Of a stretch of 64,000 nucleotides of DNA, positions 353-62,149 are shown piece after piece. Position numbers and translations under genes: made by a program. Under the pieces are notes generated by a model. The model saw only the letters and a list, made by a program, of their open reading frames with translations, had not been told where the DNA came from and did no database searches. The DNA lies in the NCBI RefSeq assembly GCF_964194155.1, contig NC_135895.1, forward strand, positions 9,424,001 through 9,488,000, read 5' to 3'. The stretch comes from Cetorhinus maximus. Its lineage: Eukaryota. The first letter of the stretch is position 1, and every line of letters begins with the position of its first letter.

Positions 353-741
353 ATGGAAAGTGGATTTAACATGTCTAAAAATACCTGCACAAGAGAGTGA
401 ATAGTTTTTCTTTTAACCATTTCTGATTATTGATCATTGTAACTGCGTATGTTATCACTGAGGCAGCGATGGACCTTCTCTGCTATTGAGGCATTGATCA
501 CTGGATATAGCCCAGACAGCAAGGAGCATATGGTATTTTTAAAAAGTCCTTGATAAGTCTGCATGACAGAGTTAATAGACTGATCAACCAGCTTTATAGC
601 TGATGCGCTGTTAACACTGCAGGGATCCTTCATTCAAGACTGGGCAGCAGCCAAGATGAAGATAGAAGGCTCATGCTCCAATCAGAGCAGTGTTTTCCAC
701 AGACATTACAGCAAGGAACAAGCCATTTGACCCAACTGATG

Positions 742-1135
742 GAGACGCAATGGCATAGTGGGAATGTCACTGCACTAAGAACCCAGAGGCCCAGGCTAAT
801 ACTCTGGAGACATGGGTTCAATTCTGACCACGGCGGCTGGCGGAATTTAAATTCAATTCATAAATCTGGAATGAAAGCTAGTGGTCTCAGTAATGGTGAC
901 CATGAAATTCTCATCAGTTGTTGTAAAAACACATCTGCTGCACTAAAGTCCCTTTAGGGAAGGAAATCTGCCACCCTTACCTGTTCTGGCTACATGTGAC
1001 TCCAGACCCACAGCAATGTGGTTGACTCTTAACTGCCCTCTGAAATAACCTACCAAGCCAGTGAATTCAAGGGCAATTAAGGGTGAGGCAATAAATACTG
1101 GTCTTGCCAGTGATGCTCGCATCCCATGAAAGAAG
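742..1135 (+). mobile_element. SINE-B: tRNA-headed non-autonomous element sharing 5' and 3' parts with LINE-B
   Basis: A-box-like tggcatagtgg, B-box-like gggttcaattc, body ggaaggaaatctgcc...gactccagacccacagcaatgtggttgactct, tail caagggcaatta...caataaat...catcccatgaa. Confidence 0.85.
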
Positions 1136-1621
1136 GGGAAAAAAAAGCTCCATGCCAGTGTTTGTGCTACACACTAGCTAGCTGTGGGCTGTAATGTGCT
1201 TTGGAACTTGTTAAAAGGTGTTGAAAAAATGCAAGTTCTTTCTTTCTTTTCACCTGATAGCTGCTATATAAAGGAACTTAGGAATACACAAAACCAGGAA
1301 AGAATCATCAAGGTCCCTCTCATACTTAAGTGCGTTTTGTGAGAGACTGGAACTAAATCTTTCCAAAGAAGGTAACAGTAATGAGATTCAAAATGCTGTA
1401 ACACATTAATCGTTAACTTGTGCTGCCATTATCAAGGTCAAGTTGCCCTGGTTTGTTAGAATTTGAAATTAATTTATACCAAAATAGGCATTGTTAGTGG
1501 GGACAATGGGAGGCCACGTGGTTTGACACATGACCTGTTCGATACGACCCTGAACTCCATCGGAGTGGCACTATGACTGGCCTCAGCTCCCATAAACGCA
1601 GGACAAGGGAAAAGCAAAAAC

Positions 1622-4347: not shown

Positions 4348-4409
4348 TATGGTGTTGGCAGGTTATTCAACTACGGGGGGCATCTCCGTTAAACTCATCG
4401 TCCAATATC

Positions 4410-4605
4410 CACACCGTTACTTCGCTGGGGCTGGGTCAAAATCCTGGACCCTCCATCCCTAACAGCACTGTGGGTGTACCCACACCACATGGGCTGCAGC
4501 AGTTCAAGAAGGCGCCTCACCACAACTTTCTCAAGGGGCAATTAGGGGCGGGCAATAAACGCTGGCCTAGCCAGCGACGCCCACATCCCACGAATGAATA
4601 AATAA
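4410..4605 (+). mobile_element. LINE-B 3' end
   Basis: gggtcaaaatcctgg...ttcaagaaggc...caaggggcaattagg...caataaa...cccacatcccacgaatgaata. Confidence 0.85.
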
Positions 4606-4689
4606 AACCACGCGGACTGCAACGGCATCTGGAGCACTCCATTCACCTTTGGGATTCGGTAGAATGACACTGGGGCTAAGAGAGTTAAA

Positions 4690-7625: not shown

Positions 7626-7654
7626 GCGAGAATGAAGACGCGTCTTTCATTGCA

Positions 7655-7785
7655 GGCCTGGCCATTTTTTTTCTTGGAAAAGGAATAACTTGCAGGGCAA
7701 CGGAGAAAGAGTGGGACTTCTTTCAAAGAGCCAGCACAGGCACAATGGAGTAAATGGCCTCCTTTTTGTGCTGTAAGGCTCTTCG
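7655..7785 (+). mobile_element. CR1 3' tail fragment
   Basis: tttcaaagagccagcacaggcacaatgg...aatggcctcct...tgtgctgtaa. Confidence 0.7.
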
Positions 7786-7789
7786 ATTG

Positions 7790-8150
7790 CCAGCGGTGCC
7801 TGGTAACACTCCCGCCTCTGAGTCAGGTGGTCGTGGGTTTGAGTCAAAATCCACAGACTTGAAGCACAAAAATCCAGGCTCACACTCCAGTGCCAGGCCG
7901 AGGGAAACGTCGGAATGCCAGCTGTAAATCTGCTTTCTCAGGCGAATGCTAAAGATCCCTGGCACTGTTTCAAAGAAGAGCAGGGGAGGTATTCTGGGTG
8001 TCCTGGCCAACACTTCCTCCTCAATATTATTGCACTGTGGGGGCTTGCTGTGCGCAAATTGGCTGCCGGTGGCTACTCTTCAAAGTGGTTCGTCGGGGGT
8101 AAAACGCTTTGGGACGTCATGTGGCTGGGAAAGGTGCTACAGTAATGCAC
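7790..8150 (+). mobile_element. SacSINE1-like Deu-SINE
   Basis: Head ggtaacactcccgcctctgagtcag...gggtttgagtc; Deu core aaagatccctggcactgtttcaaagaagagcagggg...gtgtcctggccaa; L2-type tail. Confidence 0.8.
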
Positions 8151-9084
8151 CTTTTACCAGAGAGCTTTAACTTGCTTTGCTGCAAAGGAGCTGATACTAC
8201 AGAGGCTTGTCCGGCTTGCAGCTACCAATGAAAAAGTCAGGACATGTGCGAGGTGAGTAATTTAACACCAGCCGCCTGAACTGATTTTTCTCTCTCTGTG
8301 TTGCCCTCCCCCACCAGCTCCTTTGAGGAATTCATTCAGCTCGACTCATCCTGAATCAAAATGAGTGTGACCAAGCGGGAACAGGAATTAACCTTTGACG
8401 CCAGACTCTGAAGTATTCTTGCCCTCAATTGCTAAAAATACAAATTTAATTAACTTATTGCAACTAATTTCTGTCAGGGTTATTGTTAAAGGTCGCGGCA
8501 GGGTGAAAGGCAGCTTTAAACAACGAAACCCTGATTACCTTGCCTATACTGAATGACTAACTCCGACAGGAATCATTGCCGTGTGGGATCACTCTTCGGG
8601 GCTGGGGTGACATTCCTTTTTAATTAATATCTGCAGCACCATTACCTCCGCACCATTGGGACTTATGTTGCAAAGCAGCGACCCCCACCACTCACCCACC
8701 CACCCACGCCCACCACAGCAACACCCTCCCCCTCCCCCGGCATTACTCTTTACTCCCTTCTTCATTTTATTTCTTTTCTTTTGACCTTTGACAGTAAGGT
8801 GTCTAAAGCTGGTGCCTCAAGAGTGGCGGAACCTGCGCTAGATGCCAAACTGTATGGCGTTAAAGTCCCACCAATGGTTTCATTGGTCAACCATCATAAA
8901 GCTAGTGAGACATCCAGAGAATCAGCCCACGGGGGCAATGAGAGACATCGGGAAGCCCAAGTAACTCCTGTCCCATTACTGTATACGTGAATGGCTGTAT
9001 AGATAGACAGATAGGCCAATAAATAGGGATACATAGATAAAAAGAGATACAATTTTAAATAATACACAGACAGATATGTCGCTA

Positions 9085-9620
9085 AAATCACAGAAACATA
9101 GAAGCAAGAGTAGGCTATTCGGCCCCTCATGTCTGTTCTGCCATTCAATTGGACCGTGGCTGACGTAGAAGTAGGCAAAGTAGACGTGGAGCGGATGTTT
9201 CCCCTTGTGGGGCATTCTAGAACGAGAGGCTATAGTTTTAGGCTAAGGGGTGGTAGATTTAAATCAGAGATGAGGAGGAATCACTTTTCTCAAGGGGTCG
9301 TGAATCTGTGGAATTCACTACCTCAGAGTGCAGTGGATGCCGGGACGCTGAATAAACTTAAGGAGGAGATAGACAGATTTTTAATTAGTAACGGGTTGAA
9401 AGGTTATGGGGAGGGGGCAGGAAATTGGAGTTGAGGCCGAAATGAGATCAGTCATGATCGTATTGATTGGCGGGGCAGGCTCGAGGGGCTGAATTGCCTA
9501 CTCCTGCTCCTAGTTCTTATGTATCTTCTACCTCAATGCCATGTTCTCATACTATCCTCATATCCCTTGGTGTCATTGGTATCTAGAAATCTATCGACCA
9601 CTGCTTTGAGCATACTCAAT
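9085..9620. mobile_element. Nested CR1-A 3' ends: plus-strand copy (~9166-9522) inside a minus-strand copy
   Basis: ORF 9129..9434 MFPLVGHSRTRGYS...RRNHFSQGVVNLWNSLP; the minus-strand tail stops at ...gtggctga and resumes at atcttctacctcaa. Confidence 0.85.
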
Positions 9621-9644
9621 ATCTAAGCGTCAACAGCCCTCTGG

Positions 9645-12322
9645 CTTAGCTGCACTCGTCCAGGCAAGTGGGGAGTATTCCATCACACTCTTGACTTGTG
9701 CCTTGTAGATGGTGGACAGGCTTTGGGGAGTCAGGAGGTTAGTTACTCGTCGCACTATTCCTAGCCTCTGACCTGTTCTTGTAGCCACAGTATTTATATG
9801 GCTAGTCCAGTTCAGTTTCAGGTCAATTGTAACCCCCAGGATGGTGATAGTGGGGGATTCAGTGATGGTAATGCCATTGAGCATCAAGAGCCAATGATTG
9901 GATTCTCTCTTGTTGGAGATGGCTGTTGTCTGACACTTGTATGGTGCGAATGTTACTTGCCACTTGTCAGCCCAAGCCTGGACATTGTCCAGGTCTTGCT
10001 GCATTTGGACATGGACTGCTTCAGTATTTAAGGAGTCTCGAATGGTGCTGAACATTGTGCAATTATCAGCAAACATCCCCACTTCAGACCTTTTGATGGA
10101 AGGAGGGTCATTGATGATGCAGCTGAAGATGGTTGGACTGAGGACACTACCCTGGGGAACTCCTACAGTGATGTCCTGGAGCTGAGATGTCTGACCTCCA
10201 AAGACCACAACCATCTTAATTTACGCTAGGTATGACTCCAACCAGTGGAACGCTTTCCCCCTGATTCCCATTGACTCCAGTTTTGCTGGGGCTCCTTGAT
10301 GCCACACTCGGTCAAATGCAGCCTTGATGACAAAAGCAGTCACTCTCACCTCACCCCAGGAGTTCAGCTCCGTGGCTGAACCAAGGCTGTAATGAGGTCA
10401 GGAGCTGAGTGACCCTGGCAGAACCCAAACTGAGCATCAGTGAGCAAGTTATTGCTAAGCAAGTGCCGCTTGATAGCACTGTTGATGACCCCTTCCCATA
10501 CTTTACTGATGATCGAGAGTAGACTGATGGGGCGGTAATTGGCCGGGTTCTATTTGTCCTCCTTTTTGTGACAGGACATACTTGGGCAACTTTCCACATT
10601 GCCAGGTAGATGCCAGTGTTGTAGTTGTACTGAAACAGCTTGGCTAGGGGCGTGGCAAGTTCTGGAGCACAAGTCTTTAGTACTATTGTGGAATATTGTC
10701 AGGGCCCATAGCCTTTGCAGTATCCAGTTCTTTCAGCCATTTCTTGATATCACATGGAGTGAATTGGTTTGGCTGAAGACTGGTATCTGTGATGCTGGGG
10801 ACATCCACAGGAGGGCGAGATGGATCATCCACTCGGCACTTCTGGTCTGAAGATGGTAGCAAATGCTTTTAGCCTTATCTTTTGCACTGATGTGCTGGGC
10901 TCCTCTATCATTGAGGATGGGGATATTTGTGGAGCCTCCTCCTCCAGTGAGTTGTTTAATTGCCCACCACCATTTACGACTGGATGTGACAGGACTGCAG
11001 AGCTTAGATCTGTTCCGGTGGTTGTGAGATCGCTTAGCTCTGTCTGTTCACTTGCTGCTTCTGCTGTTTGGCATGCAAGCAGTCCTGAGTTATAGCTTCA
11101 CCAGGTTGACACTTCATTTTTAAGTATGTCTGATGCTGCTCCTGGCATGCCTTCCTACAATTTTCATTGAACCAAGTTTGATTCCCTGGCTTGATGGTAA
11201 TGGTAGAGTGGGGGATATGCTGGGCCATGAGGTTACAGATTGTGGTTGAGTACAATTCTGCTGATGGCCCATAGCACATCATGGATGCCCAGTCTTGAGT
11301 TGCTAGATCTGTTTGAAATTTATCCCATTTAACATGGTGGTAATGCCTTGGAGGGTATCCTCAATGTGAAGGGGGGACTTTGTCTCCACAACAACTGTGC
11401 AGTGGTCACTCCTACCAATACTGTCATGGACATGCATCTGCGGCAGGCGGTTTGGTGTTCTTCCCTCTTGTTGGTTCCCTCGCCACCTGCTGCAGGACCA
11501 GTCTAGCAGCTATGTCATTCAAGACTCAGCCAGTAGTGGTGCGACTGAGCCACTCTTGGTGATGGACTCTGAAGTTCCCCCACCCAGAGTACATTCTGCA
11601 CCCTCGGTGCTTCCTCCAAGTGGTGTTCAACATGGAGATACACTGATTCATCAGCTGAGGGAGGGTAGTATGTGGTAATCAACCAGTTTCCTTGCCCATG
11701 TTTGGCCTGATGCCATGAGACTTCATGCAGTCCACAGTCAATGTTAAGGATTCCCAGAGCAACTTCCTCCTGACTGTATACCACTATACTGCCATCTCTG
11801 CTGGGACACAACACATCCAGGGAGATAGTGATGGTGGTGTCATTCCGTGAGGATGACTATGTCAGGCTGTTGTGAGACAGCTCTCCCAATTTTGGCACTA
11901 GCTCCCAGATGTTAGTAACGAGGACTTTGCAGGGTTGAGATTGCTGTTGTCGTTTCCAGTACCTAGGCCAATGCTGGGTGGCCCATTTGGTTTCATTCCT
12001 TTTTTGTGACTTTGTAGCAGTTTGATACAACTGAGTGGCTTGCTAGGCCATTTCAGAGAGTCAACCACATTGCTGTGGCTCCAGAGTCACATGTAGGCCA
12101 GACCAGGTAAGGTTGGCATATTTCCTTCCCTAAAGGGCATTAATGAACCAGATGGGTTTTTACAACAATGGTTTCATGGTCATCGTCAGACTTTGAATTC
12201 CAGATTTTTATTGAATTCACATTCCACCATACCCTGGCAGGATTCGAACCCACATCCCCAAAGCATTACCCTGGGTCCCTAGATAACTAGTCCAGCGACA
12301 ATACCACTAGGCCATCACCTCC
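9645..12322 (-). mobile_element. LINE-B, 5'-complete but 3'-truncated and decayed: tRNA-like head, AP endonuclease and RT (CR1-group non-LTR retrotransposon)
   Basis: Minus strand: head 12322-12029; APE motifs KVLVTNIWELVPKLGELSH, QPDIVILTE, LITTYYPPSADES; RT GVPQGSVLSPTIFSCIIND, MFADNCT, LGVTIDLKLNWTSHI, IYKAQVKSVMEYS (ORF 9630..10214). Confidence 0.9.
12240..12322 (-). promoter_or_regulatory. tRNA-derived internal Pol III promoter (A and B boxes) at the LINE-B 5' end
   Basis: Minus strand A box tggcctagtgg (12314-12304) and B box ggttcgaatcc (12250-12240); anticodon-like arm ctgga-ctagtta-tctag. Confidence 0.75.
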
Positions 12323-12559
12323 GCTAAATTGGGCCTGTGTCAGCTCTTTGAAAAGCTATCCAATTAGTCCCTATTTCCTGCTACTTCTCCATAACCTTGT
12401 AAATTATTTCCCTTCAAGTCTTCATCCAATTCCTTTTGGAAAGTTCTTGCTAACTTTGCTTCCACTGGCTCTTCAGGCAGTGCATTCCGGATCACACAAG
12501 ATAAAAAAAAATCAGATCACAGGACACTCAGAAACAGATGGAGGATCAGAGGGAGAAAT

Positions 12560-12900: not shown

Positions 12901-13139
12901 CTCACTTAACAAAGGTTACAACATAGTTGGATAAAGGGTTGTACTAAACTACATCGACCAGTAGATCTCAAAGTTCAATTCCTCCTGGTGTTGGTTGCTG
13001 TGTTGAGACAGTATTTATAAGATCTGCCCATGTTCCCTGGACCAGGGAGAGTAAAATGAGCTGAAAACTGCCCATTGACTGCAGCTGTAAAGGGCTGGAT
13101 AGTGGGTGTTAGGAGAGGCCAGCCCTGGGCTTGGGAGGG

Positions 13140-13480
13140 GAGATGGTGGAGTTGTGGTAATATCAGGGTAATCCAGAGGCCCAGGCTAATTCCCTGGGGG
13201 AACATGGGTTCAAATCCCACAATGGGAGCTGGTGCAATTTGAATTCAATGAATAAATCTGGACTATAAACCTAGTCCATGAAATTATTATCATTGCTGTA
13301 CTAATCACTAATGCCCTTTAAGGAAGGAAGGAAATCTGTCGTCCTTATCTGGTCTGGCCTCCATGTGACTCCAGACCCACAGCAATGTGGTTGACTCTTA
13401 GTTGAAATGGCCTAGCAAGCCTTTCAGTTCAAGGGAAATTAGGGATGAGCAACAAAGTGATGTCACAACACATGAAAGAG
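13140..13480 (+). mobile_element. SINE-B
   Basis: B box gggttcaaatccc; junction ggcctagcaagcctttcagtt|caagggaaattagggatg. Confidence 0.88.
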
Positions 13481-14231
13481 TATATATATTTTTTTAAATT
13501 ACCCTCCCAGCATTGAAGGCATAGTGTGACTCCCAAGCTTCACTCATGTGAAATTGGGTGAGGTGATGCAGCAGGGGAGGGGGCGTTTCTACCACCTGAA
13601 ACCATTCCCCACCTACAGGGAGGAGGTAGTGGGGAAGGGGAGGTTGGAAACTAAGACCATGGAGATCATGGGCAAGAACTTGGGAGTCAACCTCCTGCAT
13701 TTGAGAAGACGAGCAGCTGTTAGAATCATGCTCTCCAATATATTCATTGTGCGCAAATTAATTCACCACATACACCAAGGTGTAGCTTTGCTTCACTGCT
13801 CCCTTTAGTGCAAATGAAGGATGTAATAATTGCTATAAATAGACACATCAATTAGCAGTCAATTGCTATTGATGGGGACACTGCATGAATTTGTCACAAT
13901 CCCTTAAAGTGAAGGAGTCCCAAGTCATCCAGCATTTGAGGCAGCCAGCATTTGGCTCATCGCATGGTGTGGAGTATTGAAGAGAGTCTGTGGTGCAGAA
14001 CCTCTCCTCAAGAGTGCAAGAGTTCAACATTTCTCACTGGATTTTTCACAGACTAATTAGCCAATAATGAACTCAAGGACGCTGTTTTCTCCCCCCGCCT
14101 GATTGTATCAGTGATTGTTTCACTGTTTGGTTTTAATCTCCCGCTACAGCCTGGGACTGATGCCCTTTCACGGTTACTATTAGACCCAGCCCCTGAGTGC
14201 CATGACAGCTGCTTTGATGTCGGTTTTGCAG

Positions 14232-14650
14232 CAGTGGGCAGCACTCACACCTCTTAGTCAAAAAGTTGTGGGCTTGAGTCCCACCCCAGAGACTTGAGCT
14301 CAAAATCTTGGCTGACACTTCAGTGCGGTACTAAGGGAGTGCTGCAGTGACAGAGGTGCTGTCTGTTGGGTGGGGTAATTTAAGACCCCATCCAACCTCT
14401 TGGATGGACATAACAGATCCCTTGATGCTATTTTGAAGATGAGCAGGTGAGTTCTCCCTGGTGTCCTGGCCAGAGCTTTTCCCTCCACCCAAGATTATTA
14501 AAACAGATGATCTGACCATTATTGCATTGCTGTTTGTGGGATCTTGCTGTGCACAATTGTCCGCCACGTTTCCTCCATTGCAATACTTCAGAGAGCTTTG
14601 GGATGTCCTGAGGTTGTGAAAGGCACTATATGAACGCAAATCTTTCTATT
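14232..14650 (+). mobile_element. SacSINE1-like Deu-SINE
   Basis: Head, Deu core agatcccttgatgctattttgaagatgagcagg...ggtgtcctggcc, tail gttgtgaaaggcactatatgaacgcaa. Confidence 0.8.
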
Positions 14651-15225: not shown

Positions 15226-15448
15226 TAAGATAAAAGCAAAATACCGCGGATGCTGGAAAACTGAAACAAAAACAGAAAATGCTGGAAAAACTCAGCAGGT
15301 CTGACAGGCTCTTGGAGCAAGAAACAGAGTTAACGTTTCGAGTCCACATGACTCTGAAGAAGGTCATACGGACTCGAAATGTTAACTGTGTTTCTCTCTC
15401 CCCAGATGCTGCTAGACCTGCTGAGTCTTTCCAGCATTTTCTGTCTTT
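15226..15448. mobile_element. Penelope-like family A termini in inverted (palindromic) arrangement with 15-bp TSD
   Basis: Arms ~15260-15352 and ~15362-15448 are near reverse complements; flanks gtcccagttttccat (15211-15225) and gtcccagatttccat (15449-15463). Confidence 0.8.
15354..15383 (+). ncRNA. Minimal hammerhead ribozyme motif (Penelope-associated)
   Basis: CTGAAGA a ggtc atacg gact c GAAA tgtt: both catalytic boxes around a short stem II; stem I 5' strand missing. Confidence 0.6.
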
Positions 15449-15499
15449 GTCCCAGATTTCCATCCTTGGCCTGTGTTGAATTAGCAATGGTTGTGGGGG

Positions 15500-20374: not shown

Positions 20375-21135
20375 CAGTGTCATTCGCTGTTTGTAGGAGC
20401 TGGCTGCGTGCAAATTGATTGCCCTGTTTTCTACATCACAACAGTGTCTGTGCTTCAAGTTGGCCTGAAATTCCATAAGACATAGGAGCAGAAATTAGGC
20501 CATTCGGCCCATCGAGTCTGCTCCACCATTCAATCATGGCTGATAAGTTTCTCAACCCCATTCTCCCGCCTTCTCCCCATAACCTTTGATGCCCTTACCA
20601 ATCAAGAACCTATCTATCTCAGCCTTAAATACACTCAATGACCTGGCCTCCACAGCCTTCCGTGGCAATGAATTCCATAGATTCACCACTCTCTGGCTAA
20701 AGAAGTTTCTCCTCATCTCTGTTCTTAAAGGTCTTCCCTTTACTCTGAGGCTGTGCCCTCGGGTCCTAGTCTCTCCTACTAATGGAAACATCTTCCCCAC
20801 GTCCACTCTATTCAGGCCTTTCAGTATTCTGTAAGTTTCAATCAGATCCCCCCTCATCCTTCTAAACTCCATCGAGTATAGACCCAGAGTCCTCAAACGT
20901 TCCTCATATGCTAAGCCTTTCATTCCTGGGATCGTTCTCGTGAGCCTCCTCTGGACCCTCTCCAGGGCCCAGCACATCCTTCCTGAGATATGGGGCCCAA
21001 AATTGCTCACAATATTCTAAATGTGGTCCGACCAGAGCCTTATAAAGCCTCAGCAGCACATCCCTGCTTTTATATTCTAGTCCTTTGAAGCTCCTCGCTG
21101 CCTTTAGAGGCGCTACATAAACGCAAGTCTTTTTC
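20375..21135 (+). mobile_element. SacSINE1-like 3' half interrupted by a young CR1-A
   Basis: SINE homology 20375-20473 resumes at ~21085 (gaggcgctacataaacgcaagtc). Confidence 0.7.
20475..21084 (-). mobile_element. Young CR1-A 3' fragment
   Basis: ORFs 20552..21010 and 20904..21140 give a nearly intact ORF2 C-terminus; tail nearly identical to 24570-24717. Confidence 0.95.
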
Positions 21136-22370: not shown

Positions 22371-22439
22371 TGGAGGTGGGTGTAAGTGTGTATATGAGAA
22401 TGGGAGTGGGAGAGAGCAACAGTGCATTTTTAAAATTAT

Positions 22440-23232
22440 TATTTCACAGGATGTGGGCATCGCTGGCTAGGCCAGCATTATTGTTCATCTCTGGTTGCCC
22501 TTGAGAAGGTGGTGGTGAGCTGCCTCCTTGAACCACTGCAGTCCATGTGGTGTAGGTACACCCACAGTGCTGTTAGGGAGGAAGTTCCAGGATTTTTGAC
22601 TCAGTGACAGTGAAGGAACAGCAGTATATTTCCAAGTCAGGATGGTGAGTGGCTTGGAGGGGAACTTGCAGGTGGTGGTGTTCCCATGCATCTGCTGCCC
22701 CTGTCCATCGAGATGGCAGTGGTCACAGGTTTGGAAGGTGCTGTCGAAGGAGCCTAGATGAATTGCTGATGTGCATCTTGTAGATGGTGCACACTGCTGC
22801 CACTGTGCATCTATGCTGGAGGGAGTGAATATTGAAGGAGGTGGATGGGGTGCCAATCAAACAGGCTGCTTTGTCCTGGTTGTTGTTGAGCTTCTTGGGT
22901 GTTGTTGGAGCTGCACTCATCCAGGCAAATGGAAAGTATTCCATCACACTCCTGACTTGTCCGTTGTAGATGGTGGACAGGCTTTGGGGAGTCAGGCGGT
23001 GAGATACTCTCCATAGAATTCCCAGCCTCTTACCTGCTCTTGTGGCCACAGTATTCGTATGGCTGGTCCAGTTTAGTTTCTGGTCAATGGTAACCCCTCC
23101 CCCATCATGTTAGTTGTGGGGGATTCAGTGATGGTAACATCATTGAATGTCAAGTGGAGATTGTTGGATTCTCTCTTGTTGGAGATGGTCATTGCCTGAC
23201 ACTTGTGTGGCGCAAATGTTACTTGCCACTTG
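22440..23232 (-). mobile_element. LINE-B 3' fragment
   Basis: KWQVTFAPHKCQAMTISNKRES, ATRAGKRLGILWRV, QDKAACLIG, complete 3' tail. Confidence 0.92.
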
Positions 23233-26394: not shown

Positions 26395-27325
26395 TTACAT
26401 TGTATTTACTGCACAGAAGAATGTTGACCCTCCTGATTTATGGTTTATGCTCCACATGAACCTCCTCCCATCCTTCATCATATAATTCCGTCAACATACT
26501 ACTTCCATTCTTTCCTCTAACACGTCTTTATCTAGCTTTGCCCTTAAATGATCCTTTGCTATTCACTACTCCATGTGGTAACATTTGCTTTTCATTCATT
26601 CAACGTGAGCATCACTGGCTAGGCCAACATTTTTTTTGCCCATCCTTAATTGCCATGGTGGGAATTGAATTCAGATCCCCAGAGCATTAACACTGGATCT
26701 CTGGATTACCAGTGCAGTGACGATACCACTACAGCACTGTGCTCCACATTTTCAAAGCTCTCTGTGTAAGACGTTTCTCTTGAATTCCATTTTGGATTTA
26801 TTAGTGACTGGATCTCCCCAACAAGTGGAAACACCTTCACTATGTCTACCTGACAACTGTTTCATAATCTTAAAGACATCTATCAGGTCACCCTTCAGTC
26901 TTCTTTTTTTTCAGGGAAAAGAGCCCTGGCCTGTCCAATTTTTTCCTGGTAAGTATAACCTCTTGGTGTCATTCTTGTATAACTTTTTTGCACCTTCTCC
27001 AGTGTCACTATATCCGTTTTATAATATGGAAACTGAAACTGTTCACAGCGCTCTCAAGGTGGTCTAATCAAGGTTATATTCAAGTTTAGCATAAACTTCT
27101 CTGTCTTTCGATTCTATTCCTCTAGAACGGAACCCCAGTGAAGATGTTTCCACTTGTGGGGGAGATCAAAACTAGGGGCCATAAATGTAAGAAAGTCACT
27201 AATCAATCGAAAAGGGAATTCAAGAGAAACTTCTTACCCAGGGAGTGATGAGAACATGGAACACATTACCACATGGAGTAGTTGAGGTGAATACCATAGA
27301 TATATGTAAGGGGGAAGCTAGATAA
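26395..27325. mobile_element. Old minus-strand CR1 fragment containing a partial minus-strand SINE-B (~26585-26732), followed by a plus-strand CR1 piece (~27140-27325)
   Basis: ttcataatcttaaagacatctatcaggtcaccc (CR1 reverse complement); ggtgggaattgaattcagatccccagagcatta (SINE-B head reverse complement). Confidence 0.7.
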
Positions 27326-38920: not shown

Positions 38921-40597
38921 AGTCAAGAATCTACACAAGGCAACAGGTGCATGAAGGTCATTGGACATCTGTGTAGGGAAGAGACGAGCAGTAAAGAGCT
39001 GCATCTGCATCTGATCTCAATGCCTCGGCTTATTAAAGGAAGAAAGACAGAATTTGGATTCCTTATTGCTAAGCAGCACGCCCCCAGTGGAAAACACGTA
39101 TGGCTGTACATTGGATGAGGTTATAGTTGACCTGACGCCCATCTCCTCCCCCAGCCTTACCTCCAAACTCGATCGTAAATAATGAACGGTGGTGATATAT
39201 GAATAAAGGTGGAGACCACCCATGGATCGGCAAGGAGTCAACACTTGCGGCAAAGGAGGGAGGGGAGAAAAGGGAGAAGGAGAGAAAAGAGAAAAAAAAA
39301 AATTCTGGTGCGTTCTTTGAACAGCAAGCTGATTAATGGTTTGGAATGGTGGTGCTGCATATTCTCAATCTGTTACAAAGCTCACTACGCAAGCAGGCTT
39401 ACCTCCTCCGGGTTAGTGACCTCAAGATTGTCTGAGCTCTCAGACAGCAAACCAACAACACATGAGAGTGGTTAACTATAAAAGCAAGCGAAACGCTGCA
39501 AAAATAATTCCCCATTCAGCCTCTCCTAGCCAATCTGTTTCGGATTAGAACCCATCACGAGGGTTACCTCTGTTCCTTGTTTTGTGTTTTTTAAGGACAC
39601 CAACAGTGAAAATGTCCACTTTACAGAGGGCATTTTTCTGTCCTGGTACATCATACCCGCACACAGATGCCAGCTCAAACCAACCAACCCAAGTTTGAAT
39701 TGTACGCCAATGTATCTTCTTTACGGACTTTCTTTAACACGTGCCAATAGAGCCACATCAACGACTCCAATTGATTAACAGTTATTATACAACCTCCCTC
39801 AGGAAAAAAAAACAGTCTCCGTCTCCCCAGTATTAAACTATCAAGCAGAAGCTTAAAGAAGAATTCAAGTCTTCCACCTCTCCCTCTCGTGAATCTTACT
39901 GAACTGACCCCGCACCACCAGCACATCAACATTCTCCTGTGGAATACCTGACACGTATTAACAAACAACTGCACTAAGACGTGTAGGATATATACTGTGA
40001 AATGAGGTTGTCTCATAAGACAGATGTTTCAAATGTTTTCTCGGAGTACTGCTGGCTAACTTATCCATTCAGTTCTGGCTGAGTTCCACTCTTTCAATTC
40101 TCAGTTGACATCTCAAATGTTGAGCAGAACATATTTACCTATCATCTTGTTTTTATGCTTTACAGTGACTAATTTCAAAAGGTATAATCCACACCCACAC
40201 AGTGTTAGTGAGAGGAGTGCTGCAGGGCATTCAATGTACAAATATATATATATATCTGTAGACATTCCATAATTTATACTCGCGAACCAATCTGATTAAT
40301 GCACATTCTCAAGCTATTCAGTGGAGATAATGCTCCCCCACTGAATTCAACACAAATACGTCTGGTTTTCCTATTAAAAGAAAGAGCTTCTCATTTTGTG
40401 TGTTAGTTTTCTCTCGTTCGATTCAGGCTCCTGCCGGGTTTTACGGTCCTCCCAGATCCTTTGGCGCTTTGCGTCGAGTGGACCAACTTCACATGCGAGT
40501 CGAGGCGTCGAAAGCGAGACGTTTCACTTCTGTGGCCATCTGCACGTCTCGGGGAAGTTGCACTGGCGCTCTTCTGACTGTTATATTTTCTTCTGTA

Positions 40598-40815
40598 CGT
40601 TCATGGGATGTGGGTGTCGCTGACCAGGCCAAAAGTTATTGTCCATCCCTCATTGCCCTTGAGGAAGCGGAGGTGAGCCATTTTCCTGATCATCCTGAGT
40701 GGCTTGTTTGGTTACCTCATAGGGTAGTCAAAAGTCAATCACATAGCTGTGGGTCTGGAATCACGTGTAGGCCAGACTGGGTGAGGACGCCAGATTTCTT
40801 TCTCTAGAAGACATC
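40598..40815 (-). mobile_element. SINE-B variant retaining a longer LINE-B tail
   Basis: Minus strand ...caagccactcagg|atgatcaggaaaatggctcacctccgcttcctcaagggcaatgagggatgg. Confidence 0.75.
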
Positions 40816-40910: not shown

Positions 40911-41325
40911 CCCTCAACGCCATCCAGGACAAAGCAGCCTGCTTGATTGGCATCCCATCCACCACCTTAAACATTCAATGCCTCCACCACCGATGCAGGG
41001 CAGCAACTCACCAAGGCTCCTTCGACAGCAACTTCCAAACCTGCCACCTCTACCACCCTGAAGGACAAGGGCAGCAGATGCATGGGAACGCCACCACCTG
41101 CAAGTTCCCCTCCAAGCCGCTCACTCTCCTGACTTGGAAATACATTGCGGTTCCTTCCTGGGTCAAAATCCTGGAACTTCCTCCCTGACAGCGCTATGGG
41201 TGTAACCACACCAGATGGACTGCAGTGGTTCAAGAAGGCAGCTCACCGCCACCTTCTCAAGGGCAATTAGGGATGGGCAATAAATGCTGGCGTTGTCAGC
41301 GGCACTCATATCCATGAGCCAATTA
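40910..41325 (+). mobile_element. LINE-B 3' end
   Basis: LNAIQDKAACLIGIPSTTLNI and complete tail. Confidence 0.9.
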
Positions 41326-44166: not shown

Positions 44167-45185
44167 AGGCTGGATTTTACAGGTTCAAGCGGGATATGGG
44201 AGGCGGAATGGGAAGTGAGTGGTCCGCTCACTCCCTCCCCACCATCAGTAAAAGGGAGGCAGTGACGGTGGTATTGTCACTGGACTAGTATTCCAGAGAC
44301 CCAGGGTAATGCTCTGGGCACCTGGGTTTGAACACCACCATAGCAGCTGGTGAAATTTGAATTCAATAAAAATATGGAATTAAAAGTCTGATGATGATGA
44401 CCATGAAACCATTGTCGTAAAAACCCACCTGGTTCACTAATATCCTTTAGGGAAGGAAATCTCCTGTTCTGGCCTACATGTGACTCCAGGCCCACAGCAA
44501 TGGGGTTGACTCATAAATGCCCTCTGAGCAAAGGCAATTATGGATGGGCAATAAATGCTGGCCAAGCCAGCGAAGCTGAATTTAAAAAAGCATGGCAAGC
44601 CAAGTGTTGGGCACACAATTAGCAGCTTCCTAGTTTTACATTGGGAAGTGGGGGGTGGGGGACTTCATGCCCAACCGGGTGTCTAGGCTGGGACATCTGG
44701 CGGGAGAGAAGTGGAAGTCAGTCACGGCCACCAATTTAAAGGCCCCGATCTCTCACTCTCTCCTTATTTGTTATGGCAGCCTAAAAACTGTAAAGAAATA
44801 AAGCTGAATTACATCCAAACACTGCCATCTTCGCCAGCAGAAGCTACTGCTCCCTGCCACCACGGTCCCATTGGCAGGCCTTTCCTTCTGCCCTTGCCTC
44901 ATACCTGGCATAAATGACTCCCCAACTCCTCCCCGTCCGAGGCCCAATAAATGCAGTGGGCAAAGAAAAATTGCCAACAGTTGGCTCTTTAAGAAGCTCA
45001 ATAGCTTGTTAATTGGCTGTGCCAAAATGACAGGTGGGCCACCAATTTCGGCATCCGCTCACCTTCCGTATTATCGGAGCCTGGTGGCATGGCGTCAGAT
45101 TGCCAACCGGACATCATCACGCCATATTTTACAGAAGCGCCCGGGGTGGTGGCATGCCTGATGTACGTCCGTAAAATCCAGTCCC
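44167..45185. mobile_element. Harbinger-like MITE carrying a SINE-B insertion
   Basis: TIRs aggctggattttac / gtaaaatccagtccc. Confidence 0.72.
44262..44590 (+). mobile_element. SINE-B (short-junction variant)
   Basis: Head gtggtattgtcactggactagtattccag...gggtttgaacacc; junction gccctctgag|caaaggcaattatggatggg. Confidence 0.88.
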
Positions 45186-45369: not shown

Positions 45370-45700
45370 CTTTGACAGGATAGGGAAGGCCAATATTTGG
45401 TCGCCCATCCCTGATTGCCCTTGAGAAGGTGGTGGTGAGCTGCCTTCTTGAATCACTGCAGTCCATGTGGTGTAGGTACACCCACAATGCTGTTAGGAAG
45501 GATGTTCCAGGATTTTGACCCAACGACAGTGAAGGAACAGTGATATAGTTCCAAGCCAGGAATGTGAGTGACTTGGAGGGGAACTTGCAGGTGGTGGTGT
45601 TCCCATGCATCTGCTGCCCTTGTCCTTCTAGGTGGTAGAGGTCGTGGGTTAGGAAGGTGTTGTTGAAGGAGACTTGGTGAGTTGCTGCAATGCGTCTTGT
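45370..45700 (-). mobile_element. LINE-B 3' end
   Basis: Highly similar to 22490-22780. Confidence 0.88.
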
Positions 45701-45945
45701 AGAGTCGTGAGTCTTTGGAACTCTCTTCCTCAAAAGGTGGTGGAAGCAGAGCCTTTGAATATTTTTAAAGCAGAGGTAGATAGATTCTTGTTAAGCAAGG
45801 GAGTGGAAGGTTATCGGGGCCAGGCAGGAATGTGGAGTTGAGGTTGCAGTTAGACCAGCCATGTTCTTACTGAATGGCGTAGCAGGCTCGAGTGGCTGAA
45901 GGCCTACTCCTGCACCTAATTCGTACAGTCATATGTTCATATGAT
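45700..45945 (+). mobile_element. CR1-A 3' end
   Basis: tttggaactctcttcctcaaaagg...ggcctactcctgc. Confidence 0.85.
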
Positions 45946-48730: not shown

Positions 48731-48739
48731 TATGTATGC

Positions 48740-49320
48740 AGGTCAGATGCTGGGAATTCTGCTACGAGTAACTCACCTCCTGACTCCCCAATGCCTGTCC
48801 ACCACCTACAAGGCACAAGTCAGGAGTGGGATAGAGTACTTTCCACTTGGCTAGATGATTGAAGCTCCAACAACACTTAAGAAGCTTGACATCATCCAGG
48901 ACAAAGCAGTCCACTTGATTGTCACCCATCCACCATCTTCAATATTCACTTCCTCCACCACCAACGCACAGTGGCAGCAGTGTTTACCACCTACAAACTG
49001 CATTGCAGCAACTCATCAAAGCTCCTACGACAGCACTTTTCAAACCTGTGACCTCTACCACCTCAAAGGGCAGTGCAGCAGATGCATGGAAACACCACCA
49101 CCTGCAAATTCCCCTCCAAATCACACACCATCCTGACTTGGAACTATATCGCCGTTCTCTCACTGTCGCTGGATCAAAACCCTTGAACTCCCTCTCTAAC
49201 AACACTACAACACATGGACTGCAGCAGTTCAAGAAGGCAGCTCGCCATCACCTTCTCAAGGGCAATTATGGATGAGCAATAAACACTGGCCTGGTCCGAT
49301 GCCCATATGCAGTGAAAGAA
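48740..49320 (+). mobile_element. LINE-B 3' fragment
   Basis: APTTLKKLDIIQDKAVHLI and tail caagggcaattatggatgagcaataaa. Confidence 0.9.
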
Positions 49321-50059
49321 TATAAAAGTTGCCTATTCTAAGCAATAACAACATGAAATTCTAACAATATTTCATTTCCCAAGAAAAATTGAAATTGGAA
49401 ATAGTCCTTGCCCACCTGGGGTGTCTAGGTTCTCTGGCTGAAGGCACATTATTACTAGCAACTGCTTCTGATTCAGCAGGTTTTCTCTCCAGAACATCAT
49501 TGCAGGGATTCAGGTTAACAACCCAATGAAGTGCTGAGAAATGCTGTCCAACATTCCATCCTTTGATTGAGACATTTACATTAGCCTGAACAGGGTTTAA
49601 AGATCTCATTATCACTGTGCACAGAAGTACGTAGTGTCCTGACCAATAGTCTCCTTCAACCACCACCACCAAAGACAGATCACCTAGCTTATTGTCTCGT
49701 TGCTGCTTGAGGCATTTTCCTGTGTGTAAAATGGCCACTGTATTTACCAATTTAATAAGAGTTACTAGATTTCAAATTAACTTATTGCAATAAAATCCTT
49801 TGAGATGTTTCAGAGACAAATTGCTACATGAGTAAAAGCCCTTCTTAGGTATACATAGATGAAAAACATACATTCTTATATGAGTAAGAAGATCGGAGGA
49901 TTGTTTTCAACATGGCGAATTAATTCAGAAGTAAAATACATCCTGCCTGATGTATTTGTTATGTACAAGCTCGCATTAGCACCCGATGAGCACGATTTCA
50001 TTTCCACTTGTGACTGTGTGCACAAGCCAGGGAAGCATATGGTCTTTAAGTCAACAAAA

Positions 50060-55599: not shown

Positions 55600-56685
55600 A
55601 CCTCGGGAGGTTTCTGATCATCACAGATGCCAGTCTTCAGCCTATTCAATTCACTCCATGTGATATCAAGAAATGGCTGAAGGCACTGGATATTGCAAGG
55701 CTATGGGCCCTGACAATATTCCGGCAATAGTACTGGAGATGTGCTCCAGAACTTGCTGCGCCTTTGGCCAAGCTGTCCCAGTACGGTTAGAACACTATGG
55801 GGAAGGTGGTGGCGTAGTGGTATTGTCACTGAACTAGTATCCCAGGGACCCAGGATAATGCTCTGGGAATGCTGGTTCAAATCCCACCATGGCAGATGGG
55901 GTGAAATTAGAATCAATTAAAACCTGGAATTAAAAGTCTGATGGTGACCATTGCTGACTGCCATAAAAAGCTATCTGGTCCACTAGTGTCCTTACCTGGT
56001 CTGGTCTGACTGTGACTCCAGACCCACAGCAATGTGGTTGACCCTTAAATGCTCAAATGCTCTCTGAACAAGGACAATTAAGGATGGACAATAAATGCTA
56101 GCCTAACCAGTGATGCCTACATCCCATGAATGCATAGGAAAAAATCTACCTGGCAATGTGAAAAGTTGTCCTGTACACAAAAAGCAGGGCAAATCCAACC
56201 CTGGCCAATTACTGTCCCATCAGTCTACTCTCAATCATCAGTAAGGGGTCATCAACAATGCAATCAAGTGTCATTTGCTTAGCAGAATTCTGCTCACTGA
56301 TGCTCAGTTTGGGTTCTGCCAAGGTCACTCACCTTCTGACCTCACTCATTATATCCTTGATTCAAAGATGGACAAAAGGGCTGAAGTCCAAAGGCGAGAG
56401 TGACTGCCCTTGACATCAAACCAGTACCATCTTGAAGGACAAGGGTAGCAGATAGATGGGAACACCACCACCTGGAAGTTCCTCTCCAAGGCATTCACCA
56501 TCCTGACTTGGAAATATATCACTGTCACTGGGTCAAAATCCTGGAACTCCCTCCCTAATGGCACTGTGGGTGTACCTACACCACATGGCCTACAGTGGTT
56601 CAAGAAGATGGCTCACCACCAAGGACTATGAGCGACGGGCAATAAATGCTGGCCTAGCCACTGATGCCTACATCCCATGAGCTAA
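55600..56685 (+). mobile_element. LINE-B RT and 3' fragments interrupted by a SINE-B (55798-56135)
   Basis: aaggctatgggccctgacaatattccggcaatagtactg (KA.GPDNIPA.VL); resumes at atctacctggcaatgtg; 3' end at 56420-56685. Confidence 0.85.
55798..56135 (+). mobile_element. SINE-B (short-junction variant)
   Basis: A box tggcgtagtgg, B box ggttcaaatcc; junction ctctctgaa|caaggacaattaaggatgg. Confidence 0.88.
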
Positions 56686-58044
56686 TAATAAATATTAAAA
56701 CACAACAGGTTGCTATGTTGGTTTAGCTGCTTTACTGAAAACAAAGAACTCTGTCCTACTTTCAATAGACTATGGAACTCCTCCCCTCAGTCAATCTATC
56801 CTTCCAACAATCTCTTGGATTTAAAAACCCTGGGTTTGATCTCACTGAATAACAATTTACTGATCTACATTATCTGTTCTGCCTGGGCTACGTCCAGTTT
56901 AACATTTAACCTGAAAGATGGCACCTCTGACAGTGCAGCATTCCATCAGTGCTAGTATTGGTGCATCAGCTGAGATATACTCTCTGGAGTTGGGCTTAAA
57001 CACAAAATCATCTGATTCAAGGCAAAAGTGCTAGGAACTGAACCACGTTTGACACTAATTAAGATATTAAAGTCGAAAAAGATATAAAACCATATTGGCA
57101 CAGCATGAGCAACATCCATGGAGTTCCCTATAAGTGGGACAGGAAGGACAAAAGAGTCCAGGCTGAAATCTAGACGGTTAGTTGCTGTGATTGGTTTCCG
57201 TGGAAGGATGAACTAGATGGGCCAAATGGCCTCTTCTCTCTCTTTCTTAGTGATCCTTGCAAAGCCTATAAATCATTTAAAACATTGGCGGGCTACTACA
57301 AAGGGACTCAACAAAAGTCGATGTCAACACAGCTGTTGTGAGTTTAACCAGGATGGGTAAATTGGGGGGGGGGTGCGCTCAAGCACAGAATTGCACAGGT
57401 CATGGCAATGGCAAAATAAGGAAATGTTGCTTTCCACATCACTGGAGTCTCTCAGCTGGCTGAATGCAGCCCCTCACTCCTAACATCGACATGCCAGGCA
57501 CAGCCACAATAAAGCACAGCAAACTGGATAGGAAATCGTTGCAGCATTTCTAACATCATATTTTCAGCGTTTACTTCCCCGCTGGCCGCAGCCTCCCCAT
57601 CCTGTCCCACATAGCGAGTGCCGACTAATATGAGGAATTATGACTGAAATACTGATCAAGGTTGAAACGTTCTCCTGGTTTTATTGCTTCTCTTTTTTAG
57701 TTCCATCCTGGTCAAACAGCATAGACCAAACGCCAATAATTCAAATTCCAGATCCTCATATCCAAAATCACCACATGCGCTGTCAGAAGACAGTTTGTAT
57801 ATATTATGTTGCAAAATCCTGCTCAGTTAATCCCATATTCAACTTGTCATACATGAATGTGCCCTTCCATCATTCCTTTGAATGAAGCCCACTGGGGTGA
57901 TGAATAATAATCACTGCTGTTGGGAGATTATAGGCCTATTTTCATTCACTGTATTCACCTGTTTAAAGTCATGTCCGCCAGGAATTGATGAGACAACGTT
58001 GTAAAATTCACCTGGGATTACAGGACCAGGATTTCATTTTTTTT

Positions 58045-58855
58045 TTAATCCATACACGGGATGTGGGCTTCCCTGACTGGGCCAGCATTTATTGCCCATT
58101 CCTAGTTGCCCTTGAGAAGATGGTGGTGAGCCGCCTTCTTGAACCGCTGCAGTCCATGTTGTGTAGGTACACCCACAATGCTGTTAGGGAGGGAGTTCAA
58201 GGATTTTGACCCAGCAACAGTGAAGAATGGTGAGCGTTTTGGAGGGGAACTTCCAGGTGGTGGTGTTCCCATCTATCTGCTGCCCTTTTCCTTCTAGATG
58301 GTAGTGGTTGTGGGTTTGGAAGGTGATGTCTAAGGAGCCTTGGTGAATTCCTGCAGTGCATCTTGTAGATGGTACACACTGCTGTTCCTGAGCGTCGGTG
58401 GCGGAGGGAGTGAATATTTGTGGATGTGGTGCCAATCAAGAGGGCTGCTTTGTCCTGAACAGTGTCAAGCTTCTTGGAGTGTTGTGGGAGCTGCACTATC
58501 CAGGCAAGTGGGGAGTATTCTATCACACTCCTGACTTGTGCCTTGTAGACAGTGGATAGGCTTCGGGGAGTCAAGAGGTGAGTTACTCGCTGCAGGATTC
58601 CTAGCCTCTGACCTGCTCTTGTAGCCACAGTATTTATTTGGCTAGCCCAGTTCAATTTCTGGTCAATGGTAACCCCCAGGATGTTGATAGTGGGGGATTC
58701 AGTCATGGTAATGCCATTGAATGTCAAGGGGGCGATGGTTAGATTCTCTCTTGTCGGAGATTGTCATTGCCTGGCTGTTGTGCGGCACGAATGTTACTTG
58801 CCACTTCTCAGCCCAAGCCTGGATATTGTCCAGGTCTTGCTGCATTTGGACATGG
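58045..58855 (-). mobile_element. LINE-B 3' fragment
   Basis: ORF 58197..58727 TFNGITMTESPTINILGVTIDQKLNW...RAGQRLGILQRV...YKAQVRSVIEYS. Confidence 0.93.
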
Positions 58856-59084
58856 AAGATATGAAAGACTGAGCCACTGTCAGGGAGCACATAGGACGCT
58901 GTCACTCCTCAGCTCCCCAAGTTCATACAACATGGCTTTGAAATGAGAAACTGTTCTGTGAAAGAGTGGCCACTCTGCTCCTCGTGGGCAGGGCAATAGT
59001 CCCCCACGCTGCCAACAGTCAGAAGCAGGCACATCCCGCAAATGCAGACTGCCAACCTCAATCAGGCTTTGTCATGATATGGGA

Positions 59085-60260: not shown

Positions 60261-60607
60261 TACGATTCATAGATCCACACATGCCCAAAGTTATGTGGCT
60301 TTTCAAGTAGGTCAGCACCTTCCAGTCAAAATACTGTTGGGAAAACATATTAAGGAACAGAAGAGGGAGAGTTGAGAGTATAAGTTCTGAGAATATCTTT
60401 GCTGATAAACCACAGTATAAAATAACTTCAAATCTGAAGACAATATTAAATGAGAGAAGATGGATGTGCGTATGTTAGCACAAGGGAGGGTCTAAAAAGA
60501 GTTCAAATTTAACAAGGTTCAGTTGGCTACTGACTATGATACTGGACTAGCAATCCAGGGGTCACAAGTTCACATTCCACCATATCAAGTTTTATAAAAT
60601 TCAATTT

Positions 60608-62037
60608 CAGGATGTGGGCATCGCTGGCTGGGCCAGCATTTATTGCCCATCCCTAATTGCCCTTCAGAAGGTGATGATGAGCTGCCTTCTTGAACTGCTG
60701 CAGTCCCTGTGGAGTAGGTACACCCTCAGTGCTGTTAGGGAGGGAGTTCCAGGATTTTGACCCTGTGACAGTGAAGGAGTGGCAATATATTTTCAAGTCA
60801 GGATGGTGAGTGGCTTGGAGAGGAACTTGGAGGGTGGTGGTGTTCCCATGTGCCTGCTGCCCTTGCCCCTCTAGGTGGTAGCAGTCGTGGGTTTGGAAGG
60901 TGCTGTCTAAGGAGCCTTGGTGAGTTTCTGCAGTGCATCTTGTAGATGGTACTCACTGCTGCTACTGGGCGTCGGTGGTGGAGGGAGTGAATGTTCATGG
61001 AAGGGGTGTCAATCAAGCGGGGCTGCTTTGTCCTGGATGGTGTCAAGCTTCTTGAGTGTTGTGGGAGCTGCACTCATCCAGGCAAGTGGAGAGGATTCCA
61101 TCACACTCCTGACCTGTGCCTTGTAGATGGTGCTGGCTCTTTGAAAGAGATAGTCTTGTCCCCCTTGCCCTTTCCACATAGCCCTGCAAATGTTTCCTCT
61201 TCGAACATTTATCCAACTCCCTTTTCAAAGTTGTGACCGAATCAGCTTTCTCCACCCTTCAGGCAGAGCGTTCCAGCCTCCCCTGTCAAAGCTATTCATA
61301 ATTTTGAACACCACTATTAAATCTCCCATTAACGTTCTCTGCCCAAGGAGAACAAACCCAGCTTCTCAAGTCTCTCCATATAATTGGGGGGAGTCAGGAG
61401 GTGAGTTACTCGTCGCACAATTCCCAGCCTCTGACCTGCTCTTGTAGCCACAGTTAGTCCAGTTCAGTTTCTGGTCAATGGTAACCCCCAAGTTGTTGAT
61501 AGTGGGGGTTTCAGTGATGGTAATGCTGTTGAACGTCAAGGGATGATGGTTAGATCCTCTCTTGTTCGAGATGGTCATTGCCTGGCACTTGTGTGACATG
61601 AATGTTACTTGCCACTTGTCAGCCCAAGCCTGGATATTGTCCAGGTCTTGCTGCATTTGGATATGGACTGCTTCAGTATCTGAGGAGTCACGAATGGTGC
61701 TGAACATTGTGCAATCATCAGCGAACATCCCCACTTCTGACCTTCTGATGGAAGGAAGGTCATTGATGAAGCAACAGCTGAAGATGGTTGGGCGTAGGAC
61801 ATTACCCTGAGGAACTCCTGCAGTGATGCCCTGGAACTGAGATGATTGACCTCCAACAGCCACAACCATCTTCCTTTGTGCTAGGTATGATTCCAACCAG
61901 TGGAGAATTTTCTCCCTGATTCCCATTGACTTCAGTTTTGTTAGGGCTCCTTGATGACACACTCGGTCAAATGCGGCCTTGATGTCAGGGGCAGTCACTC
62001 TCACCTCACCTCGGGACTTCAGCTCTTTTGTCCATGT
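60608..62037 (-). mobile_element. LINE-B RT to 3' end, interrupted by a CR1 piece at ~61132-61383
   Basis: ORF 61366..62085 DIKAAFDRVCH...GVPQGNVLRPTIFSCCFINDLP..MFADDCT; complete tail. Confidence 0.93.
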
Positions 62038-62149
62038 TGCAAAACTGAATTCAGTAAAAATGGTAATTCCTGGACTGTGCCCCAAAAAATTACCATGGAA
62101 GTTACTGGATTCTTATTAAAAATCCAGCTGATTGACCTCAACACAGTCT

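Follow-up and report, generated by a model that had tools for sequence, protein, structure and literature searches.

The origin of a SINE is usually explained by the fusion of a small-RNA gene to the tail of a LINE. In sharks and rays, the tRNA-derived SINE HE1 has its tail in common with the CR1-like LINE HER1, which carries the canonical CR1 tail. HE1 was classified as a V-SINE (PMC4824008), and the shark SINEs treated in PMC5499810 have L2 tails and belong to the CORE and Deu types. How SINE bodies originate has been called enigmatic (PMC5786205), the heads of ZenoSINEs are of unknown origin (PMC6685494), and CR1-Zenon was reported as the partner of many bivalve SINEs (PMC11481361). As sources of ORF-less bipartite elements, the sections of PMC5786205 on this subject name only RTE, Ingi, Vingi and R2. 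Repeated origin by internal deletion is already known as a mechanism from Persaeus, a short non-autonomous element of Lepidoptera that combines the two ends, 5' and 3', of the single-ORF CR1 Zenon LINE and for which at least four origins were proposed (PMC6740152). The literature search, with Repbase, Dfam and most subscription papers outside its scope, yielded no account of the LINE and SINE described here or of a Pol III-transcribed LINE, and the element may already be deposited in a repeat database.

The window analysed here, a stretch of 64,000 nt, is repeat-rich vertebrate DNA dominated by two LINE families, canonical CR1 and the family here named LINE-B. The RT pieces of LINE-B are matched at 79% and 64% by gene models from the basking shark, Cetorhinus maximus, and the host is accordingly regarded as a shark. 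The vertebrate CR1 tail motif occurred 14 times in the window (0.24 expected), in no case within LINE-B or its short relative SINE-B. Since this motif is absent from both elements and the V-domain motif is absent from the window, identity of the pair with HE1/HER1 was rejected.

Several other repeats were observed in passing. Two CR1 3' ends, at 20473-20613 (-) and 24567-24707 (+), are 96% alike, carry the exact tail motif and represent a subfamily much younger than the remaining CR1 of the window. A further SINE-like family, presumably similar to the shark Deu-SINE SacSINE1, lies at 3932-4177, 14431-14647, 35989-36154, 38097-38256, 42872-43138 and 43556-43909, with one weak Deu motif match inside it at 43821-43835. 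A short repeat (4255-4351, 40812-40914 and 47267-47361) adjoins LINE-B or SINE-B pieces at two sites, and a MITE-like repeat with inverted arms of ~90 nt is found at 15265-15452, 29535-29628 and 51283-51384. As modelled in the basking shark, 3'-5' exoribonuclease 1 (protein P0068) has LINE-B RT as its N-terminal ~85 residues, which would be either an exonised repeat or an annotation artefact.

LINE-B is a high-copy shark LINE with a single ORF (endonuclease and RT) and a tRNA-Thr-like head in its 5' UTR. Only one head-bearing copy is present in the window (9648-12322, minus strand) and its 3' end is missing, so that the element termed LINE-B was assembled from overlapping copies 79-88% alike, the tail being supplied by eight other copies (Table 1). 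In the headed copy, the head (12322-12029) is followed by 32 nt, the ATG at 11996, and remnants of endonuclease and RT. The head, with its tRNA-like part and about 200 nt, makes up nearly the entire 5' UTR, in which about 230 nt in all follow the tRNA-like part. There is neither an ORF1 nor room for one, the single endonuclease/RT ORF is interrupted by many frameshifts and stops, and no intact full-length shark LINE-B protein was found among the protein matches. The nearest full-length relatives are single-ORF proteins of ~935-980 aa, with 34-43% identity over the RT and without RNase H. In the RT tree (55 rows, quick method), LINE-B grouped with seven single-ORF relatives and three rows, two of them named Armadillidium (98), and stood apart both from the window CR1 (99) and from the six rows that carry RNase H (99). 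Classification as canonical vertebrate CR1 was rejected on the RT tree, the absent tail motif and the lack of room for ORF1; classification as an RNase H-bearing I or Ingi element was rejected because the relatives are without RNase H and the RNase H rows fall beyond the branch supported at 99. LINE-B is presumably similar to CR1-Zenon. A 22-nt head pattern gave no match in viral contigs and metagenome contigs, and a profile scan of metagenomes returned 80 distant non-LTR loci (23-38% identity), none similar to the head or tail (best E=0.025), which were used as controls for T-runs.

Table 1. LINE-B and SINE-B features in the window (J1 to J4, junction types; w/o, without)
Feature	Positions	Strand	Basis
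LINE-B with 5' end: head, 32-nt spacer, single broken endonuclease/RT ORF	9648..12322	-	tblastn, 983-aa relative covers 11952-9648
tRNA-Thr(AGU)-like head, long variable arm; A box 12304-12314, anticodon loop 12284-12290, B box 12240-12250	12229..12322	-	
Remaining LINE-B 5' UTR, i.e., SINE-B 'body'; w/o V, Meta, UCON3, Deu motif	12029..12228	-	
ORF remnant, first ATG 11996-11994, endonuclease then RT, w/o ORF1	9648..11996	-	
LINE-B hosting J2 SINE-B; own internal deletion of ~870 nt at 56419/56420	55619..56700	+	
LINE-B, 5'-truncated, RT end, tail stem-loop, A-rich end	22427..23232	-	
LINE-B, 5'-truncated, with tail	58040..58856	-	
LINE-B, 5'-truncated, with tail	60590..61139	-	
LINE-B RT fragment	61388..62038	-	
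LINE-B, 5'-truncated, with tail	48738..49330	+	
LINE-B, 5'-truncated, with tail	40913..41317	+	
LINE-B, 5'-truncated, with tail	45387..45703	-	
LINE-B tail, tail reference for read mapping	4401..4607	+	
SINE-B, J1 (13429/13430)	13137..13495	+	alignment
SINE-B, J1 (1067/1068)	741..1142	+	alignment
SINE-B, J2 (44528/44529)	44254..44589	+	alignment
SINE-B, J2 (56068/56069), nested in same-orientation LINE-B, w/o clear target-site duplication	55799..56144	+	
SINE-B, 5'-truncated, J3 (40695/40694), 33 extra tail bases	40586..40814	-	
Short SINE-B, J4, tRNA part and tail at GGCA (26654-26651)	26588..26745	-	

A sensitive BLAST search with the LINE-B head gave seven copies in the window at E<1e-10, namely the LINE at 12322 (minus) and six copies of SINE-B, besides two weak matches at 24704-24732 and 62394-62419 (E about 0.02-0.03). 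According to the preliminary description, each SINE-B is the 5' region of LINE-B joined to the LINE-B 3' tail by one of at least three junctions. This anatomy was confirmed: all six copies end in the LINE-B tail, with zero unassigned bases and nothing foreign between head and tail. The three junctions also stand. J1, ...CAGTT joined to CAAGGG, is present in two copies, of which that at 1067/1068 is more diverged; J2, ...CTCTGA(G/A) joined to CAA.G, is likewise present in two; and J3, with one copy on the minus strand, reads ...CCACTCAG and then 33 extra nt, where ~30 extra tail bases had been reported. A fourth junction, J4, was added from a single minus-strand copy in which the tRNA part alone is joined to the LINE-B tail at a GGCA microhomology. 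The copy positions given earlier were right at the junctions, whereas two copies extend outward at the 5' end by a few more bases, to 13137 and 44254.

The 33 extra nt of J3 can be aligned, with 22 identities, to the 32 nt that come after a shared CAG in the LINE tail, and the microhomology at J1 and J2 is at most 1 nt. The junctions are nested (J3>J1>J2>J4), with the tail entered at the identical base by J1 and J2. Between J1 and J3, the head homology stops within 2 nt of one point and the tail entries are 32 nt apart. At five SINE-B copies, a search for target-site duplications of more than 6 nt gave none. One unit of a 7-nt tandem repeat is lost in both the LINE head (12170, -) and the J2 copy at 44254 (~44400, +), and seems to be retained in the second J2 copy (55799); the common loss would reflect either parallel slippage or two separate births of J2.

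The tRNA-like nature of the head was most evident in the majority sequence of the six heads, in which ARAGORN at a relaxed score of 90 reported a tRNA-Thr(agt) with a long variable arm, a score reached by 1 of 300 shuffles. Among single heads, none of the six passed at 90, five passed at 80, and nothing was reported at the default setting. In Rfam, the tRNA-Sec model covered the full length of the head at a non-significant E=5, and no significant tRNA was obtained with single head copies. The B-box motif is recognisable in five of the six heads, and 73.6% of the cloverleaf pairs are paired vs 25-51% in slid controls; the covariation count, in which the variable-arm helix was out of register, gave zero double changes. 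The 5' ends of the LINE and the SINE coincide, 8-13 nt upstream of the A box.

As in SINE2 elements, SINE-B has a tRNA-like head with A and B boxes, a tail common to its partner LINE, and amplified copies, the last point being based on the two copies each of J1 and J2 in 64 kb and on a J2-sized joint in reads. At the same time it consists solely of the 5' end and the 3' end of one LINE, as a SIDE does; the Persaeus definition of SIDEs, however, excludes tRNA homology and a Pol III promoter, and the head of SINE-B is tRNA-like. SINE-B behaves as a SIDE that is a tRNA SINE as well, because its parent LINE carries the tRNA head. Membership in older SINE groups was rejected: a motif from the V-SINE primer had no match in the window at up to 3 mismatches, short MetaSINE and UCON3-SINE motifs had none, and the Deu motif had six, which is the chance level, none of them in SINE-B (the last three as motif tests, not full alignments). 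The short conserved word of CORE (PMC5786205) was absent from the SINE-B alignment, a comparison at the level of this word.

Reads from other sharks bear on the question of whether the headed LINE is a family. Four of 24 sequencing runs, from three shark species (three contig runs and one raw-read run), were mapped on 4380-12400 with a cut-off of 80% likeness; since this cut-off was combined with a targeted-capture library in the raw-read run, read depth is not copy number. Six of the 15 joints listed (from 8,840) link the ORF side at 11898-11938 to the head side at 12013-12022. Contigs bridging ORF and head numbered 26, 17 and 16 in the three contig runs, and as their shorter sides are up to 45, 61 and 46 letters long, they enter the shared head at 12029. 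Raw-read depth was ~19,500 over the RT, 2,000-2,600 over the 5' part of the ORF, 4,500-6,200 over the head and 0-3 over unique flanks, the drop from the RT to the ORF 5' part being as expected from 5' truncation. The alternative of an isolated chimera at 12322, in which a SINE RNA was template-switched onto a truncated LINE and no headed family exists, would suit the fact that this LINE is the sole headed copy in the window, without a 3' end and lying between other repeats. It is very improbable in view of the bridging contigs, several per organism in three organisms, the head and ORF depths of the same order, and the join falling just before the first ATG. The tRNA-headed parent assumed in the preliminary description is thus a real multi-copy element, its ORF-head bridges being present in all three organisms.

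SINE forms were recovered from the same data. A head-to-tail joint (12057 to 4536) was covered by 479 reads with about 172 starts. In reads of 144 letters with one side of 61, no more than 22 letters can lie between head and tail, which agrees with J2 but not with J1. Among the 15 joints listed of 8,840, the head-to-tail joint of J1 was absent. Loose ends at 12169 (743, 537 and 730 contigs) open with the J1-type head variant at a consensus agreement of 0.44-0.46, and both head types are therefore widespread. At least two junction forms, J1 and J2-sized, have spread as families. Other read joints skip 446-792 nt within the LINE body, some of them on deep contigs (depth 743-1871 vs ~50-70 for single-copy contigs), hinting at further amplified deletion forms.

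With regard to the direction of origin, the divergence from the majority was 17% for SINE tails and 16% for LINE tails (p=0.9; 6 and 8 copies, three rows poorly aligned), which supports the view that SINE-B is no older than LINE-B. The reverse direction would require a conventional SINE, made of tRNA, body and LINE tail, whose head was taken as 5' UTR by the LINE-B lineage, with the junction variants arising inside the SINE family. Precedents for such a step exist, since LINEs form 5' chimeras with small RNAs including tRNA (PMC13174262) and Ingi-3_AC may have acquired a piece of Ceph-SINE (PMC5786205). The capture point, however, must have hit the boundary between SINE body and tail within 2 nt in a head of ~290 nt, the body matches no ancient SINE domain tested, and the SINE tails are no more diverged than those of the LINE; this direction is consequently considered unlikely. 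Under deletion, the match of the head ends is automatic, whereas capture needs a match within 2 nt, and deletion from LINE-B is therefore favoured as the proximate origin of SINE-B. An older capture of a now-lost SINE, followed by deletion, is compatible with this explanation too.

The number of births is a separate matter. The preliminary description had regarded SINE-B as an internal-deletion derivative born repeatedly; the first part is upheld by the anatomy and the multi-copy headed LINE, whereas the second is weakened by the nested junctions, the tail breakpoint shared by J1 and J2, and the head tree. In a seven-row tree of LINE and SINE heads (one LINE head and six SINE heads, unrooted), no fork reached 80. 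With five rows, the J1 pair formed a clade (95.7/95), and AU tests did not reject mixing of J1 and J2 heads (p=0.21 and 0.11). The J1 pair has about five features (four substitution columns and indel blocks) that are absent from the LINE head and both J2 heads, the latter showing the LINE-type diagnostic features. A single birth followed by serial deletion would start from a J3- or J1-like SINE, with J2 and J4 arising secondarily in the SINE lineage or in single inserted copies. The nesting of the four junctions, the common tail base of J1 and J2, the singletons J3 and J4, and the seven-row tree without a supported fork agree with it, and it is a serious possibility, though somewhat short of an even chance. 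It is opposed by the fact that J1 is more than one deletion away from J3, since a cut from one TCAAG repeat to the other would leave 3 bases too many, and by the LINE-type heads of J2, on account of which J2 must, under one birth, have branched before the J1 head changed. J3 and J4, as single copies, could be post-insertion deletions, and for J1 and the J2-sized form, separate births from the LINE and derivation of one from the other are about evenly balanced. Repeated births of SINE-B are plausible rather than established.

Whether the head also serves as a promoter for LINE-B can be considered from the distribution of T-runs. On the coding strand, runs of at least four T terminate transcription by Pol III, degenerate runs having a partial effect (PMC3141230). 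In the 11 LINE-B pieces (7,684 nt), runs of at least three numbered 25 for T, 109 for A, 92 for C and 104 for G. Five runs of at least four T were present, three of which lie within 70 nt outside LINE homology, and the other two are private changes, so that no such run is shared in 3,168 aligned columns, the 5' 1.5 kb of which is represented by one copy. By comparison, runs of at least four T number 19 in 5,786 nt of the window CR1. The TTT/TT ratio over T content was 0.46-0.51 in LINE-B (binomial p=0.002-0.005, non-redundant sets), 1.0-1.4 in the window CR1, and at minimum 0.62 with a median of 1.04 in the 80 non-LTR loci. Under an amino-acid-preserving null, 14 runs of at least three T were observed vs 24.8 (p=0.003) in pooled copies, which are not independent; in a single LINE-B copy the figures were 8 vs 13.3 (p=0.036). 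Synonymous T was avoided before TT (2:14 vs 170:228, p=0.018).

Other comparisons gave weaker or no differences. Dinucleotide shuffles showed no significant deficit in runs of at least four T (5 vs 7.5, p=0.21, the three runs outside LINE homology included), nor did the codon null (1 vs 4.0, p=0.07), Phe TTT:TTC was no more skewed than the other two-fold codons (p=0.84), C-runs were likewise low in one of three sets (p=0.018), and 2 of 40 control ORFs have 0-1 runs of at least four T. One control non-LTR element (L050:131-1838), whose 5' end lies outside its contig, has no such run in 1.7 kb (2.2 expected). The hagfish consensus sequences CR1-3_EBu and CR1-7_EBu, the latter judged by eye to be akin to LINE-B, have 26 and 8 TTTT matches (PMC7245038, supplement 2). 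Among the 3' ends of 14 LINE-B and SINE-B copies (e.g., 22427, 45387, 60590 and 13490), four have a run of at least four T beside the A-rich tail, and AATAAA lies upstream of these runs, inside the stem-loop region of the tails. This pattern is that of T+ SINEs but could equally be tail decay, as runs of at least four T occur at 5.1 per kb in the non-repeat DNA of the window.

LINE-B would most simply be read by Pol III from the same start as SINE-B, because no other promoter region is left and the sense strand is without inherited runs of at least four T. On these grounds, Pol III reading of LINE-B from the start of the head is suggested tentatively, the chances being rated slightly below the balance. 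Alternatively, the head could be a processing signal: LINE-B would be transcribed by Pol II, either by read-through from outside or from a cryptic promoter that lies within the 200-nt body, and an RNase P-like cut would be made on the 5' side of the tRNA-like fold, comparable to the action of the ribozymes of R2, RTE and Ingi. The poverty in T-runs would in that case stem from base composition alone or from selection against premature polyadenylation or splicing. Such a function would accord with the 5' self-cleaving ribozymes described in several LINE clades (PMC5786205) and with the weaker deficit under the dinucleotide and codon nulls. It appears rather doubtful, given that the A and B boxes are recognisable, that an RNase P product is likewise uncapped, and that the window CR1, the 80 other non-LTR elements and the two hagfish CR1 sequences keep T-runs.

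Taken together, a headed single-ORF LINE from which SINE-B arose by removal of the middle, and which Pol III may itself read, is the best explanation and is considered probable, if by no means secure. The middle of LINE-B would have been removed by template switch or by recombination at short microhomologies, and the head is joined straight to the tail stem-loop that the LINE RT would recognise. As the 5' end of the parent would already hold an internal promoter for Pol III, the deletion product would at once be a functional tRNA-type SINE, requiring no fusion of tRNA and tail; Pol III transcription of the whole LINE would turn any deletion into an instant SINE. The strongest form of this reading, in which LINE-B would be an autonomous coding element of ~3.2 kb, read end to end by Pol III, purged of T-runs and acting as a SINE factory with several births, is regarded as rather unlikely.

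Parent and offspring side by side, without a fusion step, offer a testable origin for SINE head, body and tail together, and if the deletion reading is true, a textbook-looking tRNA SINE and its 'body' would be the 5' UTR of the parent LINE. A Pol III transcript is without an m7G cap, and its translation would need another route, a point against Pol III reading of LINE-B. If LINE-B is a Pol III unit, it would represent a natural, translated Pol III transcript of kilobase scale, and the question would arise of how a reverse transcriptase is made from uncapped RNA. As a signature, the lack of T-runs is inexpensive to use and allows any LINE library to be screened.

Compared with the known systems, SINE-B is similar to Bov-tA, AfroSINE, CoeSINE4 and SINE2-1_ACar in combining a tRNA head, a piece of a LINE 5' UTR and a LINE 3' end (PMC5786205). 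Bipartite SINEs, however, are described as gaining their tRNA head after deletion of RTE or Vingi, the parent being headless (PMC5786205), whereas the parent LINE-B is headed. RTE-1_DAn and elements related to it are, like LINE-B, LINEs holding a tRNA-like sequence, which in their case matches many SINE2, but RTE-1_DAn belongs to the RTE clade, unlike LINE-B (PMC5786205). In the T+ SINEs B2, Dip and Ves, which are Pol III elements, AATAAA is combined with a T-run terminator and an A tail, as in the tails of LINE-B and SINE-B, where the T-runs may be tail decay; they are non-coding and mammalian, unlike LINE-B (PMC8466645). A further parallel is Persaeus, which likewise consists of a CR1-like LINE reduced to its 5' and 3' ends, with variable breakpoints and microhomology at the breaks (PMC6740152). 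Persaeus, however, is without tRNA homology or a promoter for Pol III and retains the ORF start, whereas the 5' end of LINE-B is itself tRNA-like and SINE-B is without coding sequence.
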